A stretch of 64,000 bases of DNA, taken from the NCBI GenBank assembly GCA_045105515.1, contig JBGCDR010000035.1, forward strand, positions 413 through 64,412. The letters run 5' to 3'. Below, one piece after another: positions 54,098-62,828 of the stretch. The notes beneath the pieces are model-generated. The model was not told the DNA's origin. It ran no database searches and was given only the letters and a program-made list of their open reading frames with translations. This DNA comes from Oligoflexales bacterium. GTDB lineage: Bacteria; Bdellovibrionota_B; Oligoflexia; Oligoflexales; Bog-1112. The position numbers and the translations under genes are program-made. The stretch's first letter is position 1, and the number at the start of each line of letters is the position of its first letter.

Positions 54098-56629
54098 TTA
54101 GCGAAGTTCTGAACCAACTCTTTGCTTCAGCCACTGTAAGAGATTTTGAGATTCCTTCTCAACTTCCTTGTCTGTCAATGTCTTTTCTAAAGACTCGAAC
54201 ACGAAAGATGCGGCCATGCTTTTCTTACCTGACTCAACATGCTCACCCTGATAAAGGTCGAATAAACGCATTCTTTTGAGGTTCTTTTTCTTAGGAAATT
54301 CATTCACAGCTTTTTCAAGGTTTGCATAACTGAGCCCTTCATCTACCACCAGAGCAAAATCACGAATCACAGCAGGAAATTTTCGTGGACGTGGGTCTAC
54401 ATCTTGCTTCTGGTCTTGCGCCATATAAAGAGCTTCAAGGTCCAATTCAAAAACTACCGGACTTTCACCACCCAACTCCCAATCAAGTGCGGAGCTTGGG
54501 TGGAGCTCACCGACAAAACCAAGGACATGGCTTCCAGATATAATTTTTGCACAAGCACCCGGGTGCATAAATGGCAGCTCAGACTCCGAAGGACGATGCC
54601 ACTCCAAACAATAAAGCCCAAAACTAGCGCACAAGGCCTCAACGACCCCTTTTCCATGAAAGAAATGAGCTTGTTCTTCGGCATGATCCCACCCCTGCTC
54701 ACGGTAAAGGTGATCAAAGATTCCAGCAACTAAGTTACGCTCAATAGGCCTAGATTTTTCGCCATGAGCTTTAGCGGTTAGATGCAACTCATCTCTATCC
54801 CAGTCACTAAATAGCGGATATTGCTTTTTATCCAAGGTTACCGCACCGAAATCATAAAAAGCCCGCCCCACCTCAAAAAGTCGCGAACCCTTATGCCCAT
54901 GATGCCTGTTGAGGCGACTGGCTTTCAATAAACCCGGAATCAATGACGTCTGCATGAAAGCCATTTCCTCATTGAGAGGATTTAGTAATTCTTTAGTAGG
55001 CCAGTATGGATGTCCAATTTTTAGACGAAGTTTTTCATAGTCATGAACGCTATGAAAAGGAAATGAGATTGCTTCTGTAAGTCCTAGTTGAGCAAGTACA
55101 AGCTTAACGCTATCTGTAAATTCAATAATCGGATGCTCAATATTAGGAGTGATATTCATTCTTGGAAGCTCATAAGGGACTTTTTCAAAACCTTCCAAAC
55201 GAGCTACTTCTTCGATGAGATCCACTTCACGAACAATATCATGCCGAAATCCAGGGATCTCAAAAAGCATTCTCTCTGTAGTTTTATCAATTAATTTAAA
55301 CTGCAAAGCACTTAAGTGCTTAACACAGTCATCCAAACTTAATTGATGAAGATTAAGAAAACTGCGAACACGGGGCAGCCTCAATGCAATTTTAGCAGGA
55401 GTTTGAGGAGCAGGATAAACATCCAATAACTTGCAACTTACTTGCGGTGCTTGCTCACCTACTTCAAGTAAACAACGTTCAAGGAGGGTCCCAACTCTAA
55501 GTGATACCTGATCTATATTCTCTATATGAATCCCTCGTTCAAACCTATGAGACGCTTCTGTATGTAGGCCAAGGCGTTTGCTAGTCTTACGCACTTGTGT
55601 AGGGAAAAAATGCGCTACCTCAATGATCAAATCGCTTGTATCGCTTTTAACCTCAGAATTTGCACCACCCATAATCCCAGCTAAACCAACCGACTTAGTA
55701 CTATCGCAAATAAGTAGATCGCCTGGATCTAATTCAACTGTATTACCATCAAGCGTGGACAAGGTCTCACCTAAAGTGGCTGAACGCACTTCAATGACTC
55801 CACCCTCTAGGTACCTCTTATCATAGGCATGTATTGGCTGACCAAGCTCGAGCATGACATAGTTGGTAACGTCAACCAAAAGATTAATTGGCCTCATGCC
55901 TGCTGCTTTAAGCCTGGTTTGCATCCAAGTAGGTGCAGCTACGGACTTTACTCCTTCGATAGCCAATGCGGTAAACCGAGCGCAGCCTGCATCCGCAGCA
56001 ATCTTAACTTTTACTTTTTCACTAGTCTGAAATTCTCCACTACCACATTTAATATCAGGAAGCCTCAAAGTCCGGCCTAACTTTGCAGCTAGATCCCTGG
56101 CAAGTCCAACGTAACTCAGACAATCTGCCCTATTAGGAGTAAGTGATATATCAAGAATAATGTCATCAGTATTTACGTAATCAGCAATAGGAGAACCTAG
56201 CTTCCAGTCAGCTGTAATTTCTAAAATTCCCTCGTTTGCTTCTGAAATACTGAGTTCTTTTTCACTACATAACATACCCTGTGAAGGTTCGCCGCGAATT
56301 TTACTCGCCTTAATTTTGAAATCAGGTGCTAGTTGAGTGCCAACAGTTGCTACCGCAACTTTTAGACCGCTACGAGCATTCGGAGCGCCACAAACAATTT
56401 TTAATAGTTCACCGGCCCCAACATCCACATCACAAAGCTGTAAGCTGTCCGCTCCAGGGTGTTTTGCAGCAGTTTTTATTTGCCCGACAATGACTCCCTT
56501 TGGGATTGGAGCGATGGTTTCACTACCTTCAACCTCATGACCAAGCTGAGTTAGTGTTTCGGCAATAATTTCTGGTGAGAGATCTGAAAAATCACAATAT
56601 TCATTAAGCCAGTTTAGTGATACCAACAT
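54098..56629 (-). CDS. pheT: Phenylalanine--tRNA ligase beta subunit
   Basis: N-terminal MLVSLNWLNEY..., a tRNA-binding (OB) domain, B3/4 and B5 domains and a C-terminal FDLYQGEHV..GKKS anticodon-binding block. Immediately downstream of pheS. Confidence 0.95.
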   Translation of the reverse strand: MLVSLNWLNEYCDFSDLSPEIIAETLTQLGHEVEGSETIAPIPKGVIVGQIKTAAKHPGADSLQLCDVDVGAGELLKIVCGAPNARSGLKVAVATVGTQLAPDFKIKASKIRGEPSQGMLCSEKELSISEANEGILEITADWKLGSPIADYVNTDDIILDISLTPNRADCLSYVGLARDLAAKLGRTLRLPDIKCGSGEFQTSEKVKVKIAADAGCARFTALAIEGVKSVAAPTWMQTRLKAAGMRPINLLVDVTNYVMLELGQPIHAYDKRYLEGGVIEVRSATLGETLSTLDGNTVELDPGDLLICDSTKSVGLAGIMGGANSEVKSDTSDLIIEVAHFFPTQVRKTSKRLGLHTEASHRFERGIHIENIDQVSLRVGTLLERCLLEVGEQAPQVSCKLLDVYPAPQTPAKIALRLPRVRSFLNLHQLSLDDCVKHLSALQFKLIDKTTERMLFEIPGFRHDIVREVDLIEEVARLEGFEKVPYELPRMNITPNIEHPIIEFTDSVKLVLAQLGLTEAISFPFHSVHDYEKLRLKIGHPYWPTKELLNPLNEEMAFMQTSLIPGLLKASRLNRHHGHKGSRLFEVGRAFYDFGAVTLDKKQYPLFSDWDRDELHLTAKAHGEKSRPIERNLVAGIFDHLYREQGWDHAEEQAHFFHGKGVVEALCASFGLYCLEWHRPSESELPFMHPGACAKIISGSHVLGFVGELHPSSALDWELGGESPVVFELDLEALYMAQDQKQDVDPRPRKFPAVIRDFALVVDEGLSYANLEKAVNEFPKKKNLKRMRLFDLYQGEHVESGKKSMAASFVFESLEKTLTDKEVEKESQNLLQWLKQRVGSELR

Positions 56630-56659
56630 ACGAAGAGCCCTTAACTTTAATTCAGTAAA

Positions 56660-57712
56660 TTAGCGGTAAATAGGAAATTGAGATAGATAGCGATAATCTC
56701 CGGTAAACATCTGCCGGAGATCAGGAAGTCCATACGCAAGCATAGCCATTCTATCTATGCCAAAACCAAAGGCAAAACCCGTATATTCTTCACTATCGTA
56801 TTGCACGGACTCAAAAACATTTGGATGAATCATGCCTGAGCCTCCAATTTCTAGCCAACCAGTATGGCTACAAACTCGACACCCTTTTCCTCTGCAGATG
56901 GTGCACTGTAAATCTACTTCCGCTCCTGGCTCAACGAATGGAAAAAAGCTGGGTCGGAAACGAGTTTGCAAGTCGTTTCCAAATACACTTTTAAGGAAAG
57001 AATCAATAACACCTTTGAGATGCGAGAAAGAAATACCTCGATCAACAACTACACACTCAATCTGATGAAACATCGGGGTATGAGTTGCATCGTTATCGAC
57101 TCGATATACCCTGCCAGGCGCAACAAGGCGCACAGGAGGCCTCTCTTGAAGCATGGCGTGAATCTGAATATTGGAAGTATGGGTCCGTAGCAAAAAATTT
57201 TTATCTTTGAGAAAAAACGTATCTTGCATATCTCTTGCTGGGTGGTGTTCAGGAATATTCAAAGCACTAAAATTATAAAAATCTTGATCGATTTCCGGCC
57301 CATCATAGACTGTGAAGCCTAGGCGCCTAAATGCTTTGAGGAGCAAACTACGCATAAGTGTCACAGGGTGTAAGGAACCTTGAGTGACTTTGCCTTTAAG
57401 TGGCAAACTTATATCAATCGGAGTGCGAGAAAGCTTCTCCTCAATTTCAAAACCAACGGCTAGCTCCTTTAGCTGACCCACCTCTCCCTCAATAGATTGG
57501 CGTAGCTGATTGATTGCTTTCCCAGCCTCCGGGCGCTCTGCTTTGTCCACTGACTTTAGGTCTTCATACAATTTATTCAGAGCACCTTTTCGACCTAGCC
57601 AGCTGACCCTAAGCTCTTCAATAAGGCTGGAACGCGGTGTTTCCTTAACCTTTGTAGCTTCGGTAGTAAATTTTTCCTGTAGTTTTCGTGCATTATCTAT
57701 GAGGCTTGCCAC
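56660..57712 (-). CDS. pheS: Phenylalanine--tRNA ligase alpha subunit
   Basis: Class II aaRS motifs HPARDMQDTFF, LRTHTS, GRVYRVD, FFPFVEPG and GFAFGFGIDRMAML. GTG start. Confidence 0.95.
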   Translation of the reverse strand: MASLIDNARKLQEKFTTEATKVKETPRSSLIEELRVSWLGRKGALNKLYEDLKSVDKAERPEAGKAINQLRQSIEGEVGQLKELAVGFEIEEKLSRTPIDISLPLKGKVTQGSLHPVTLMRSLLLKAFRRLGFTVYDGPEIDQDFYNFSALNIPEHHPARDMQDTFFLKDKNFLLRTHTSNIQIHAMLQERPPVRLVAPGRVYRVDNDATHTPMFHQIECVVVDRGISFSHLKGVIDSFLKSVFGNDLQTRFRPSFFPFVEPGAEVDLQCTICRGKGCRVCSHTGWLEIGGSGMIHPNVFESVQYDSEEYTGFAFGFGIDRMAMLAYGLPDLRQMFTGDYRYLSQFPIYR

Positions 57713-57854
57713 AGTTCTACTCGCTTTTAAAATTAAGTTCCTTGAAAACAGAGGTACTCAAACCCCCAAAACCCCTTCACATCCAAGACAAAAACTTTGG
57801 GGATCGAGGGCAATATGTCTATTAGATTTAGAGACCAAACTAATATCTCGGCCA

Positions 57855-59042
57855 TTATATGGCTTCGACAGCCTCTTGCAACCTTTGAGTCCCTTTACGG
57901 ATCGTATCTTCATCGGTAGCATAGCTCAGACGCAAGTAACCCGGACTGCCAAAAGCCTCTCCGGGGACAACTGCAATATGCTTTTCTTCAAGTAAATATT
58001 CACAAAAAGCCATGGTGTCAGTGTCTTCAAACTTCTTGCTATTTTTCAGTGCAGGGCGCACATCAATAAATAGATAAAATGCGCCTTGCGGCTGAATATA
58101 ACCGAGGCCTTTGATAGATTTTATTCCATCAACTGCCAAGTCTCTTCGAGCTTTTAATAAAGAAATCTGCTCCGACATCAGTGGCGAGCCCTGCTTGATC
58201 GCCCAGCAAGCTGCCTCTTCGACAAAAGGAGGTAGGCAAGTTGATGAGTGGCTCTGCAGACTCTTCACAAGTTTCATAACCTTTGCTGGGCCACAACAAT
58301 AGCCTACTCTCCAGCCAGTCATAGCAAAGCTTTTAGACAACCCATTGACGAGGATAAACTGCTCGCGCAGCTCTGGACAAACTTTCAGCAGCGATACATG
58401 TGGAGTATCAAAAGTAAGGTATTCATAGATCTCATCAGAGACTACCCACCAGTCCTTTTGCGCTAAATAATTACCCAAAGCCTTTAATTCATCTTGTGAC
58501 AATGCGTATCCTGCGGGATTATTAGGGGAGCAGAGCAAATATGCTGCAGTCTTTGGGCTACGGTATTCTTCAATAATTTGGGGATCAAAACATGGCTTTC
58601 CATCAACCATAGGTAATAGAACAGGCACCCCACCTGCCGCTTTGATTTGATCCTGATAACTAACCCAAAAAGGAGCGGTCAAAAGCACCTCGTCTCCATC
58701 ATTTAGTAGAGAAAGCGAAAGATGGAACAAAATTTCTTTCGCACCTATGCCACAGACAATCTGCTCTGGAGGGTAGTCTAATCCATTCTCTCTTGATAGC
58801 TTTTCACTGATTGCCGTGCGGAAAGCTATACCACCGCCTGCAGGTCCATACTTGGTTTTTCCAGATTCAAGAGCCTTGATAGCAATATCTACCACTTGTT
58901 TTGGAGTACCATAATCAGGTTCCCCAACTGCAAAGTTCAAGACATCTGCACCACTTGCTTTTAGTTGCTTTGCCTTACTGTTCAAAGCCACAGTTGGAGA
59001 AACTTGCAAACTGCTAATTTTTTTTGAAACTTCCATACTCAT
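57855..59042 (-). CDS. aspC: Class I/II pyridoxal-phosphate aminotransferase (aspartate aminotransferase-like)
   Basis: NFAVGEPD, NPAG, SDEIYEY and the PLP-lysine block LSKSFAMTGWRVGY, plus RLSYA near the C-terminus. Confidence 0.88.
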   Translation of the reverse strand: MSMEVSKKISSLQVSPTVALNSKAKQLKASGADVLNFAVGEPDYGTPKQVVDIAIKALESGKTKYGPAGGGIAFRTAISEKLSRENGLDYPPEQIVCGIGAKEILFHLSLSLLNDGDEVLLTAPFWVSYQDQIKAAGGVPVLLPMVDGKPCFDPQIIEEYRSPKTAAYLLCSPNNPAGYALSQDELKALGNYLAQKDWWVVSDEIYEYLTFDTPHVSLLKVCPELREQFILVNGLSKSFAMTGWRVGYCCGPAKVMKLVKSLQSHSSTCLPPFVEEAACWAIKQGSPLMSEQISLLKARRDLAVDGIKSIKGLGYIQPQGAFYLFIDVRPALKNSKKFEDTDTMAFCEYLLEEKHIAVVPGEAFGSPGYLRLSYATDEDTIRKGTQRLQEAVEAI

Positions 59043-59157
59043 GCCTATACAGGTTTAATATATGCTACTCAGTGCAATACAATATCAAATCTGCATCGGA
59101 TAGAAAAAAAGAAAGCTGCAATTATAAATAAGTGGGGACTAAGGCCTGTAAATTGAG

Positions 59158-59358
59158 TGTAAGCTCACCAAGCAGATCAACGCGCGGTAGAACCCACCTT
59201 CTGATAGGTGGGTGCCACACAACCGTTTTAGGCTTCCCTCTACCTGAGTTCGCATATATGTTAATGCGAAATGGAGGGCTTGCACACCGCGGATAGATTA
59301 GGTTCCCTTTTTAAGAGCATCGGTTCTCCGGCAATTTAACCTAGCCGATGAGCTTACA
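59158..59358. ncRNA. Candidate structured RNA of about 200 nt. Class and strand unresolved.
   Basis: Nested perfect helices. P1 pairs 59158-59167 with 59349-59358 (10 bp). CGCGG 59183-59187 pairs with CCGCG 59287-59291. Hairpin ACCCACC/GGTGGGT spans 59192-59213. CCCTC 59236-59240 pairs with GAGGG 59274-59278 and encloses hairpin TTCGCAT/ATGCGAA at 59249-59270. TAGGTT pairs with AACCTA (about 59308-59342). A possible AACCG/CGGTT tertiary pair exists. The region is non-coding and more GC-rich than its flanks. Confidence 0.4.
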
Positions 59359-59562
59359 AAGCAAGAATACCATAAATACAAAAAAATAAAACAGCTAGAC
59401 GAATGCGAGTATAGATGCCTTGACTTACTCCGCTGAGTATGAATGAAAAATAGGTTCCATTACTCGGGTGAAATTTGCTTATAATCTAATTTAATTTCAA
59501 GAGAGTATCTGGCCTTAAGCTCAACTTCTCGGCCTAATAATATTTCAAGGGGATTTTCACAT

Positions 59563-59793
59563 ATGACACGAATAGTAGTTTCGAAAGTAGGTCCAGATAA
59601 AAAAATTGATGTAAAAATCAATGTCCATTCACTAGATAAGGTTGAGGCATACCACACAAAAGACACCTTATCCTCTCGAGTTTCACTTACAAAAGAGTCT
59701 GGCAGCATATTTTTGCTGCCACAAGAAACCCAATGGAAGGAGGGAGAAGAAGTTAACATTCTCATAAACTATCCAAAGCAAGTATTTAGCTAA
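59563..59793 (+). CDS. Small hypothetical protein (76 aa)
   Basis: K/E/V-rich composition like real genes in this window, with AGGGG 11 nt upstream of the ATG. The competing antisense ORF (59460-59765) is S/F/L-rich, like a shadow frame. Still weak. Confidence 0.3.
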   Translation: MTRIVVSKVGPDKKIDVKINVHSLDKVEAYHTKDTLSSRVSLTKESGSIFLLPQETQWKEGEEVNILINYPKQVFS

Positions 59794-59945
59794 TTTTTGA
59801 TCTGACCGAACAGAAGCGCTCTTTAAACATTCTTCGCACAAGTCCTAGGATCTGCTAGTGTTCTCATAGAAATGAATAATAAGCTCATAACTTCAACGTC
59901 TCCATGTTAAAGTTGATGATGTTACATTTTTTAGGGGAGAGTGAC

Positions 59946-62828
59946 ATGAGGTGGCATTACACACTTCTAGTAGTGGCACTTTTGGCCACAGGAATCTACT
60001 TTATGCCAGGTAAATTTAGCCAATATCTCAATAAGGAACAGCAGACTTTGATAGACCTGAACTGGAAGCATCCCAATGACAAAAGGCAATACAAATCCCT
60101 AACACTCCCCAACAATCTTGAAATTTTATTAGTCTCAGACCCTAGCTTAAATAAATCTGCAGCATCGCTTGATGTCGGTGTCGGTAGTTTAGAAGACCCT
60201 AAAGAACACCTTGGACTAGCTCATTTCCTTGAACATATGCTCTTTCTTGGAACTGAAAAATATCCAGACATCGAAGAGTATAGCCGCTACCTCCATTCCT
60301 ACCAAGGGTCATCCAACGCTTACACAGCGGCAGAGAACACAAACTACCACTTTGAAGTCAATCATGAAGGGTTCGAGGGCTCGCTCGACCGTTTTGCTCA
60401 ATTTTTTATCGCTCCAACTTTTAATCCAGAATTTGTTGAACGTGAGCTCAAAGCTGTCCATTCAGAACATCAAAAAAACCTCCAAGACGACTATTGGCGT
60501 TCTCGAATGATAATCAGGAAGCTACACAAAACCGGACACCCAAGACAAAAGTTTTCTACTGGGGACAAGAATACCTTAAGCAAGGTAAATCGTGAAATTT
60601 TAATGGAATTCCACAAAAGACACTACTCAGCCAATCAAATGAAACTTGCTATTCTTTCAAAGTACTCACTTGATGAACTAAGTGAAATGGTGAAAAAGTA
60701 TTTTACCGAGGTACCAAACTATGATCGTAAAAAACTAGAGTATGACTCTGAAATATTTTCAAATGAACAACTGCCTAGGCTTATAAGCATTAAACCAATT
60801 AAAGATATTAAGAAACTTACCCTGTTTTTCCCAACGCCAAGCAAAGAACCTTATTGGAAATCTAAACCTGGTTCAACCATTAGCCACTTAGTCGGGCATG
60901 AAGGGCAAGGTTCCCTATTAAGCAAACTAAAGAAAGAAAACTTAGTCACCAGCCTAAGCACATGGCTAGAATCAAGTTCCTATGCAGGCATGTTCCAAGT
61001 TGACATGACTCTAACTGAAAAAGGTGTCGCAGAAAAAGATCGCATTATCGAACTGTTTTTTTCTTATATCAAGATGCTCAAGAAGCAAGGTTACCAGCAT
61101 TATATTTATGAAGAACGAAAAACCATGTCCGATATAAACTATGTTTATCGGGACTTAAAGGAAGGTAGCTATGTAGTAGCTGCGTACGCATCAAAAATGC
61201 ACGATCACCCTCCCCTTGAAATAGACCGCCGGGAAATGCTAATTCATGAGTACAACGACAAAGATTTCAGCCTTTTCTTGAATATGATCAAACCTAATCA
61301 AATGAGCGTTGTTCTAAGCAATAAAAATGTGGAAACTGATCAAGTTGAGACCAACTATGGTACCCATTATAAAGTTGAAAAACTATCGCCAGTACTAGTC
61401 GAAAAGTGGCAAAAATCAAATATCGATCCATATTTTAATCTACCTTCAATCAACGATTTCATTCCAAAAAAGCTAGAAATCTTAAGTTCGGTAGAAAAAA
61501 CCCATCCCTATAAATTAGTTGACAATGAGTGGGGTGTTTTTTGGTTTCAACAAGACGATTACTTCAAATTACCTAAAGCAAATGTACAACTTCTACTTTT
61601 CAACAATAAAGTCAACACTGATCCCAAAGCTAAGATAATGTCGCTATTATATACTATGGCATTATCAGAGGGGCTCAATGAGTGGAACTATGATATCAGC
61701 TTAGCTGGACTTAACTATACAGTTTCGCGGACAGATCGAGGGATCCAACTAGATTTTTCCGGCTATGCAGAAAGCATTCCCCATCTCATGGAAGAGCTAG
61801 TATCAAAGCTTACTACCATTTCAATCGATGAAAAGCGATTTGATTCTCTAAAAAATGACCTCAAGCGAAATATTGCCAATGCTAGGTTAGATGTGGCCTA
61901 CCAACAGCTTCTTTATGAAATTAAGTTCTTAAGCTCGAAGTCTTTAATTCATAGAGATGAAATCTACAATCCATCTAGTGATATAGATTTGATTACTCCT
62001 GTTACTCTAAATGCTTTGAAGGAATATGTTTCTAAATTATACTCAGACATTGGTATAGAAGGCTCAGCCTATGGCAGTTTACGGCCGGATGATCTGCAAA
62101 AAGCTATCCAAACTTACTACACAAAACTCAAAGTCAAGCCAATTCCAGAAGCTCTAAGAAAGCAAGTGGAGACTATTAAATTTAAGGCAGGAAACCCAAA
62201 AGCTAAGCTAATAGCTTCTGACTCGCATAATCATTGTTGGGGGAGTAGTGCACAATTTGGGCTTCGCGACCCTAAATTAAACGCTGCGATTAGGGTTGGA
62301 CACGCCCACCTGAAGACAAGCTTCTTTACAGAACTCAGGACCAAACAACAGTTGGGTTATGTCGTATACAGTGGTTTAAACCATTCAGAAAAATCTCTTG
62401 GGATGTTGTTTCTAGTCCAGTCTTCAGATTATAATCCTTTTCTCATTTCCAATAAAGTGGAGCAATGGAAGGACAGTGCTTTAAAAGAGCTCGAAACGCT
62501 CTCAGAAGAGCAACTGCAAGCATACAAGCAAGCTGTTGCATCAGAACTACGAGAGTCTGACAAAACTATGGCTGAAAAGCACCAAACCAATATCTTCGAA
62601 ACTATTATCCTTGAAGGACAGTTCCAGTATAAAGAAAAGATTGCGTCGGCAGTAGAATCCCTCAATAAAGAAAAGGTCTTATCAGCTTTTAAACAAGCTT
62701 TTTCTCAAGAAGCAGAAGCATACCTCTCTGTATACCTTTATTCCAAAAAAGATCAAAGTCGCCTAGAAATACGAGAAGAGCTGATCAACGATGTCAAAGC
62801 TTATAAGCAAGGTTCTGCAATTTTTTAG
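59946..62828 (+). CDS. M16-family (pitrilysin / insulin-degrading-enzyme-like) zinc metallopeptidase, membrane-anchored or secreted
   Basis: Inverted zinc motif HFLEHMLFLGT (HxxEH) with downstream ...NAYT..E.T.Y. There are four M16-type half-domains over about 960 aa. The ATG at 59946 (MRWHYTLLVVALLATG, behind GGGGAGAG) is preferred over the track start at 59904. Confidence 0.85.
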   Translation: MRWHYTLLVVALLATGIYFMPGKFSQYLNKEQQTLIDLNWKHPNDKRQYKSLTLPNNLEILLVSDPSLNKSAASLDVGVGSLEDPKEHLGLAHFLEHMLFLGTEKYPDIEEYSRYLHSYQGSSNAYTAAENTNYHFEVNHEGFEGSLDRFAQFFIAPTFNPEFVERELKAVHSEHQKNLQDDYWRSRMIIRKLHKTGHPRQKFSTGDKNTLSKVNREILMEFHKRHYSANQMKLAILSKYSLDELSEMVKKYFTEVPNYDRKKLEYDSEIFSNEQLPRLISIKPIKDIKKLTLFFPTPSKEPYWKSKPGSTISHLVGHEGQGSLLSKLKKENLVTSLSTWLESSSYAGMFQVDMTLTEKGVAEKDRIIELFFSYIKMLKKQGYQHYIYEERKTMSDINYVYRDLKEGSYVVAAYASKMHDHPPLEIDRREMLIHEYNDKDFSLFLNMIKPNQMSVVLSNKNVETDQVETNYGTHYKVEKLSPVLVEKWQKSNIDPYFNLPSINDFIPKKLEILSSVEKTHPYKLVDNEWGVFWFQQDDYFKLPKANVQLLLFNNKVNTDPKAKIMSLLYTMALSEGLNEWNYDISLAGLNYTVSRTDRGIQLDFSGYAESIPHLMEELVSKLTTISIDEKRFDSLKNDLKRNIANARLDVAYQQLLYEIKFLSSKSLIHRDEIYNPSSDIDLITPVTLNALKEYVSKLYSDIGIEGSAYGSLRPDDLQKAIQTYYTKLKVKPIPEALRKQVETIKFKAGNPKAKLIASDSHNHCWGSSAQFGLRDPKLNAAIRVGHAHLKTSFFTELRTKQQLGYVVYSGLNHSEKSLGMLFLVQSSDYNPFLISNKVEQWKDSALKELETLSEEQLQAYKQAVASELRESDKTMAEKHQTNIFETIILEGQFQYKEKIASAVESLNKEKVLSAFKQAFSQEAEAYLSVYLYSKKDQSRLEIREELINDVKAYKQGSAIF

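Follow-up and report, generated by a model that had tools for sequence, protein, structure and literature searches.

The block at positions 59158-59358 of the window, that is, of the whole 64,000-nucleotide stretch of Oligoflexales bacterium DNA that was analysed, is almost certainly a single-copy 6S RNA gene (ssrS) lying on the minus strand, as judged from comparison with the known family and with related genomes. In other words, the block is a real structured RNA gene, of a class that is already known and ordinary. Scanning with Rfam 15 places the 6S / SsrS RNA family (RF00013) at 59159-59356 on the minus strand, over positions 1-187 of a model of 187, with a score of 58.3 bits (E = 5.5e-09 for the 64-kb window). 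This score lies about 12 bits over the gathering threshold of 46.4 bits, which makes it solid and not extreme, and it is the sole match in the entire window at gathering thresholds. A permissive rescan of 58900-59700 on both strands (E <= 1) returned no family besides 6S and, in particular, gave no match of any kind to riboswitch or T-box families. The first-pass annotation had taken the block for an RNA of no known class, distinct from 6S; the full-length match over the curated cut-off, obtained likewise for the homologues in relatives, overturns that reading. The Rfam search that had been proposed as a check therefore yields a confident 6S match, by which the novelty is gone and the RNA is confirmed.

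The class is defined by rods of about 160-200 nt, with a closing stem, a large central bubble and an apical stem-loop (PMC8876501, PMC8414754). The block conforms to this definition in size, being about 200 nt long, and in its rod fold; it scores over the gathering threshold with the full model, its helices are upheld by covariation and it occurs, as 6S RNA genes do, in one copy per genome (two occasionally) and broadly across its lineage. Specifically, the gene is placed at 59158-59358 on the minus strand, with mature ends that are predictions, and the pairing of its closing stem reaches 59358 and 59158, beyond the limits of the Rfam match. The block is also more GC-rich than its surroundings (0.49 vs 0.36-0.385 in the neighbouring non-coding DNA), and a slice of 216 nt folds better than its dinucleotide shuffles, with z = -3.80 for the minus strand and z = -3.58 for the plus strand. 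These values, together with the covariation described below, bear out the earlier description of a GC-rich block holding a conserved multi-helix structured RNA of about 200 nt, and the sequence elements then listed are all present at their places. A coding explanation was dismissed, since neither of the two short open reading frames overlapping it (59132-59296, plus strand; 59139-59285, minus strand) has a Pfam match.

The genome from which the window derives, a 6.3-Mb assembly of 461 contigs with the window on contig C35, contains one copy of the 6S gene. The search also covered 40 relatives belonging to its genus, family or order, and of the 41 genomes 34 give a 6S match, exactly one each; 31 of these matches stand above the cut-off. 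Conservation of the block, compensatory changes included, extends to at least 16 families of the order. In comparison with the same-genus relative, it keeps 90.6% identity, while the flanking non-coding DNA falls to 62-78%, and most of the substitutions within its helices preserve the pairing. The closest public relative of the adjacent aminotransferase gene, at 91% identity, is found in an Oligoflexales bacterium MAG, and the DNA sequencing runs that contain the window exactly are plant metagenomes. The literature on 6S RNA and Bdellovibrio that was searched holds incidental mentions only.

The fold was evaluated on a MAFFT alignment of 28 full-length 6S matches, which was not fitted to structure and whose outer columns are unreliable. 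From these homologues, RNAalifold recovers the 6S core, namely the GAACC/GGUUC helix, GGG/CCC with the helix next to it, the long apical helix and CCCUC/GAGGG. In the core helices 95.1% of the cells are paired, compared to 87.5% in shuffles, and none of 500 shuffles reaches the observed value. Changes on both sides of a helix affect 12 pairs and 68 cells, a pair count that one shuffle out of 500 attains, and the covariation score is 0.303 vs 0.155 for the shuffles (0/500 reach the observed score). When the 3' partners are slid by 1-3 columns, pairing falls to 35-53%. The pairs of the first helix, GAACC/GGUUC, are invariant or covarying in all 28 sequences, and the apical arm, corresponding to consensus helices 2-4, is 91-99% paired, with 11 pairs showing both-side changes.

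Because the sequence of the closing stem is not conserved and its alignment is poor, this stem was tested instead by the energies of arm duplexes, each 5' arm being paired with its own 3' arm and with every non-cognate combination. In the window, the 5' arm UGUAAGCUCAUCGGCUAGGUUAAAUUGCCGGAGAACC (59322-59358, minus strand) pairs with the 3' arm GGUUCUACCGCGCGUUGAUCUGCUUGGUGAGCUUACA (59158-59194, minus strand) at about -38 kcal/mol. Among the 28 homologues, cognate duplexes average -39.1 kcal/mol and non-cognate ones -21.1 kcal/mol, and the cognate arm is the best partner in 26 of the 28, the two exceptions being cases in which the arm was truncated by the anchor pattern. The comparison with the same-genus relative, which also bears on the 3' arm, shows one compensatory C-G to U-A change in the closing stem and several changes that pass via G-U. 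The exact 10-bp inverted repeat that had been put forward as a closing stem (TGTAAGCTCA at 59158-59167, pairing with TGAGCTTACA at 59349-59358) is thus real, and corresponds to the outer 10 bp of a covarying stem of about 32 bp.

Above the closing stem, the Rfam alignment shows the helix below the bubble as GCCGGAGAACC with GGUUCUACCGC. The 5' strand of the central bubble, GAUGCUCUUAAAAA (59308-59321, minus strand), carries the conserved CCGAU and is unpaired in the Rfam consensus alignment. The sequence GAACCGAUGCU is invariant or nearly so in the 28 homologues, and the unpaired GAUGCU... that follows GAACC is conserved. The 5' strand of the bubble has a length of 14 nt, and the 3' strand, ACCUAUCAGAAGGUG, one of 15 nt. 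Beyond the bubble, the apical (internal) arm occupies 59210-59307 on the minus strand, from GGG at 59305-59307, which pairs with CCC at 59210-59212 in the Rfam alignment, and there it shows GUGUGCAAGCCCUCC ... GAGGGAAGCCUAAAAC. The arm includes the CCCUC/GAGGG helix (59274-59278 with 59236-59240; CCCTC and GAGGG on the plus strand lie at 59236-59240 and 59274-59278, respectively), another stem of the first reading that holds up, with 4 of its 5 pairs covarying. On the whole, the predicted structure is a canonical 6S rod, composed of a closing stem of about 32 bp with small bulges, the central bubble and an apical arm capped by a lineage-specific hairpin.

Other helices that had been read by eye in the single sequence do not belong to this fold. 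In particular, the proposed helix between CGCGG (59183-59187) and CCGCG (59287-59291) has 61.8% of its cells paired in the 28 homologues, a value equalled by 174 of 500 shuffles, and it was rejected, its pairing being indistinguishable from that of shuffles. The TAGGTT/AACCTA helix (59299-59304 with 59338-59343) and the long-range pairing of CGGTT (59321-59325) with AACCG (59221-59225) fall outside the conserved fold and were rejected indirectly: their arms are used by other covarying helices, namely GAACC/GGUUC, CC/GG (alignment columns 84-85 with 184-185) and CCGC/(A)CGG (columns 96-99 with 171-174).

The only large departure from the Rfam model concerns the apical loop, which carries an insert of 30 nt against 3 positions of the model. 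The insert contains a 7-bp hairpin, UUCGCAU/AUGCGAA, at 59249-59270 on the minus strand (TTCGCAT at 59249-59255 and ATGCGAA at 59264-59270 on the plus strand). This hairpin, already recognised in the first reading, is real and extends the apical loop in a lineage-specific manner: of the genomes searched, only that of the window and that of the same-genus relative have it. It is also found in two contigs of about 92% similarity from seawater RNA libraries, which carry the compensatory changes C59251T with G59268A and G59252A with C59267T. Independent insertions of 20-40 nt are present at the same position (alignment columns 115-156) in three other lineages, represented by genomes G005, G019 and G034, which indicates that the apical loop tolerates insertions.

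A second local hairpin involves the 3' side of the central bubble. The region at 59192-59213 on the minus strand can form an 8-bp hairpin, ACCCACCU/AGGUGGGU, which is predicted in the minimum free energy fold and corresponds to the ACCCACC/GGTGGGT element (59193-59213) of the first reading. This element is real as an alternative conformer: according to the folding predictions, the hairpin takes in the 3' bubble strand together with part of each of the two helices flanking the bubble, and it competes with these helices. Of the 28 homologues, 24 retain CCCACC...GGUGGG in full, one has a compensatory variant (CCCACU/AGUGGG) and in three the hairpin is partly disrupted; because it is nearly invariant, its covariation is neither proof nor disproof. 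A hairpin of the 3' central bubble drives release in gamma-proteobacterial 6S RNA and is pre-formed in 6S-1 of B. subtilis (PMC8876501). By analogy, the hairpin described here would have a role in release driven by product RNA.

Upstream of the gene, a putative promoter is recognised in the extended -10 element TGGTATTCT, at 59364-59372 on the minus strand. The motif TGnTAnnnT is shared across loci: 27 of 30 have it no more than 30 nt before the 5' end of the 6S RNA, compared with 2.9% of background 35-nt windows, and the same-genus relative retains TGTTATTCT despite its diverged surrounding DNA. The box was found by comparing loci, for which the 70 nt upstream of every 6S match were printed. 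A generic sigma-70 scan missed the 6S promoter because the -35 box is absent. The 6S promoters of the order (loci L001-L030) appear by eye as extended -10 elements without a recognisable -35 hexamer, and promoters of the lineage may generally be of this kind. On the basis of these motifs, we infer that the 6S RNA is transcribed from its own extended -10 promoter, with a transcription start predicted near G59357, which lies at the closing stem's base.

On the 3' side, the sequence just past the stem end at 59158 (minus strand) is CUCAAUUU. An intrinsic terminator was sought between the 6S gene and aspC and was not found in this 116-nt spacer, which forms no stable structure (z = +0.93); since no clear terminator comes after the gene in the window, the 3' end of the 6S RNA is a predicted one. 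Inspection by eye of the relatives shows a terminator-like hairpin followed by a T-run downstream of 6S in loci L005 and L013, and a T-run directly after the closing stem in L008 and L016. The same-genus relative has an insertion of about 41 nt directly past the 6S 3' end (L022:1693-1740), absent from the window, which implies that the sequence just 3' of the closing stem is unconstrained.

The search for RNA sequencing runs containing this organism found none, and returned only read-length contigs from relatives. The contigs of the two seawater RNA libraries, about 92% alike, cover the 6S core; they carry no strand information, and carry-over of DNA is possible. These runs (X12 and X14, both seawater metatranscriptomes) align to 59173-59331 of the window, and are about 92% identical to the 6S core of the organism found in plant metagenomes. 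Marine relatives thus exist, and their 6S RNA is probably expressed.

The gene directly downstream of the 6S gene, on the same strand, encodes an aspC-like class I/II aminotransferase (57855-59042; Pfam PF00155, E = 1.6e-64), whose ATG lies 116 nt from the block. It is followed by pheS (56660-57712) and pheT (54098-56629), both on the minus strand; the two genes together span 54098-57712, and the Pfam domains tRNA-synt_2d, B3_4, tRNA_synthFbeta and FDX-ACB are found across them. Such a position had suggested that the block could be a cis-regulatory leader, whether a riboswitch, a T-box-like element or an attenuator, controlling aspC-pheST, and several features of the region would suit it. The RNA precedes aspC directly and on the same strand in 15 of the 30 loci, in most of which pheS is the next gene on the contig, and it precedes pheS directly in 2 more; in four relatives (L019, L029, L028, L008) the gap to aspC is as short as about 6-40 nt; and in the window no terminator separates the RNA from aspC. 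The leader reading is nevertheless very improbable. The block gives a full-length 6S match, whereas riboswitch and T-box families are missing even in the permissive search, and no expression platform was found by the gene. In the 27 loci mentioned above, a promoter motif of the RNA's own lies right before its 5' end, and in about 13 of the 30 loci both RNA and promoter persist with other genes downstream, neither aspC nor pheS. Moreover, the terminator-like hairpin and T-run seen by eye after the RNA in at least two relatives (L005 and L013) argue against it, as does the architecture itself, a rod with a central bubble that has neither a ligand-pocket junction nor a terminator/antiterminator switch by the start codon. 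Of the original proposal, then, the minus-strand RNA upstream of aspC-pheST stands, while the riboswitch or leader function falls with the RNA's own promoter and its persistence where aspC and pheS are missing.

The second alternative to a 6S RNA gene is an unrelated small RNA, or an RNA of the plus strand, resembling 6S by chance. The plus strand does fold well (z = -3.58), and the helices listed in the first reading are Watson-Crick, and hence the same on both strands. The Rfam match, instead, is confined to the minus strand, where the promoter motif is also found in 27 of the 30 loci. Furthermore, 5 helix changes with respect to the same-genus relative keep pairing only via G-U and, like the G-U pairs of the closing stem, are C-A mismatches on the plus strand. 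Taken together, the exclusive minus-strand match, the changes that depend on G-U and the promoter motif fix the strand as minus. Since the whole model is matched, in one copy per genome across the order, a chance resemblance is extremely improbable. The third alternative, by which the block encodes no functional RNA and is either a GC-rich palindrome that arose by chance or what is left of a mobile element, has in its favour only that intergenic inverted repeats are common, deserves as little credence and is refuted by conservation with compensatory changes in at least 16 families, the block being moreover unrepeated in the genome and a distant blastn search against plasmids having given zero matches.

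The assignment to 6S RNA being preferred, its features can be compared with those of the RNAs already studied. With 6S RNA of E. coli and other proteobacteria (RF00013) it shares the length of about 200 nt, the closing stem, the central bubble, the apical stem and the presence of one copy per genome. The motifs also follow one another as in E. coli 6S: GAaCCGAU belongs to the 5' bubble, the apical arm has GUGnGCAAGCC and GAAGCCUAAA, and CACC...GGGUUC is found on the 3' side. In addition, E. coli ssrS is immediately upstream of ygfA on the same strand, a placement comparable to the one observed here. Differences are nonetheless evident: the downstream gene is an aspC-like aminotransferase gene followed by pheST and not ygfA, the apical arm bears the 7-bp lineage-specific hairpin (a 30-nt insert in place of 3 model positions), and the promoter is an extended -10 element with no evident -35 box. 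The 3' bubble strand can also form a hairpin together with the 3' strand of the adjoining helix, comparable to the 9-bp release hairpin known from gamma-proteobacterial 6S RNA (PMC8876501); while the E. coli hairpin forms only after product RNA synthesis, the one described here is predicted in the free RNA. In this respect, and in its rod architecture, the RNA resembles 6S-1 of B. subtilis, in which a 3' central-bubble hairpin is likewise predicted in the free RNA (PMC8876501), but its motifs are of the proteobacterial type, and a second paralogue, corresponding to 6S-2, was not found in the genome. A structurally related RNA, the rod-like and RNA polymerase-binding Ms1 of Actinobacteria, is also known (PMC9130861); it differs in being longer, in binding the core enzyme and in being restricted to Actinobacteria, whereas the RNA of the window matches the 6S model.

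The 6S RNAs studied so far mimic an open promoter, bind the RNA polymerase holoenzyme and are released upon synthesis of a product RNA (pRNA) (PMC8876501, PMC8414754). By analogy, the rod of the Oligoflexales RNA would mimic an open promoter and fill the active-site cleft of the primary-sigma RNA polymerase holoenzyme, and this occupation of the polymerase would dampen housekeeping transcription under nutrient scarcity. As the concentration of NTPs rises, the polymerase would copy the 5' strand of the bubble into a short pRNA. Its start would lie opposite U59319 of the conserved CCGAU, and the template would be copied toward its 5' end, with a product 5'-AUCGGUUCUCC...; the predicted product RNA begins 5'-AUCGGUUCUCCGGC... 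The alignment puts the conserved CCGAU at the position of the product RNA start in E. coli 6S. Synthesis of the pRNA would then unwind GAACC/GGUUC and favour the ACCCACCU/AGGUGGGU hairpin, and the polymerase would be released. Polymerase binding and product RNA synthesis, as well as the exact RNA ends and read-through into aspC-pheST, are what we infer for this RNA.

A further aspect concerns the relation between the 6S gene and the genes that follow it. The short 6S-aspC gaps of the four relatives leave scant space for a separate promoter and suggest co-transcription or read-through. The order ssrS, aspC, pheS (with pheT) on one strand is observed in the window (54098-59372, minus strand) and in loci L004, L006, L008, L011-L014, L016, L019, L026, L028 and L029, and the order ssrS-aspC-pheS is conserved over many families of the order. 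In the window, the aminotransferase gene may be co-transcribed with the 6S gene, and read-through into aspC-pheST, like that of E. coli ssrS-ygfA, would be plausible.

A divergent open reading frame of about 290-340 aa lies upstream of ssrS, on the opposite strand, in loci L003, L004, L011, L012, L014-L017, L020, L023 and L024; it is rsmI-like in the six cases that were printed, and a TP_methylase domain was confirmed by Pfam in the two that were tested. In the genus of the window, an M16 peptidase gene (59904-62828) stands in this position, along with a small open reading frame. A candidate frame of 76 codons (59563-59793, plus strand) has AAGGGGA 9 nt before its ATG and no Pfam match; its first 60 residues are 83% identical in the same-genus relative, in which the frame changes after them, and it overlaps a candidate minus-strand frame of 101 codons (59460-59765) and a terminator-like hairpin of the minus strand (59721-59700). 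The non-coding sequence at 59401-59555, upstream of the 6S promoter, is 78% identical to that of the same-genus relative, compared to 62% for the DNA adjoining 6S, and contains at about 59477-59486 a plus-strand TATAAT with TG two bases upstream, which may be the promoter of a unit composed of the small open reading frame and the M16 peptidase gene.

The appropriate annotation is ssrS (6S RNA, minus strand), and the element no longer belongs among the candidates for new RNA classes. Routine Rfam annotation detects this 6S RNA, so that the case has little significance past its correct labelling, except for the reminder that by-eye reading of helices in a single sequence can overlook a family already known and propose helices unsupported by relatives. 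Of modest value is the record, for the little-studied Oligoflexales and relatives, of a 6S RNA, of its extended -10 promoter and of the conserved rsmI | ssrS-aspC-pheST neighbourhood, and the prediction of the product RNA is concrete and could be sought in metatranscriptomes. A broader implication would follow if ssrS were the first gene of a conserved ssrS-aspC-pheS-pheT transcription unit in Oligoflexales and related families, a tentative idea to which we give somewhat less than an even chance. If this were true, the 6S RNA would be cut from the 5' end of the mRNA for an aminotransferase and phenylalanyl-tRNA synthetase, and the level of an RNA that dampens the polymerase would be tied to the expression of amino-acid and tRNA-charging genes, as a lineage-specific counterpart of the E. 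coli ssrS-ygfA operon.
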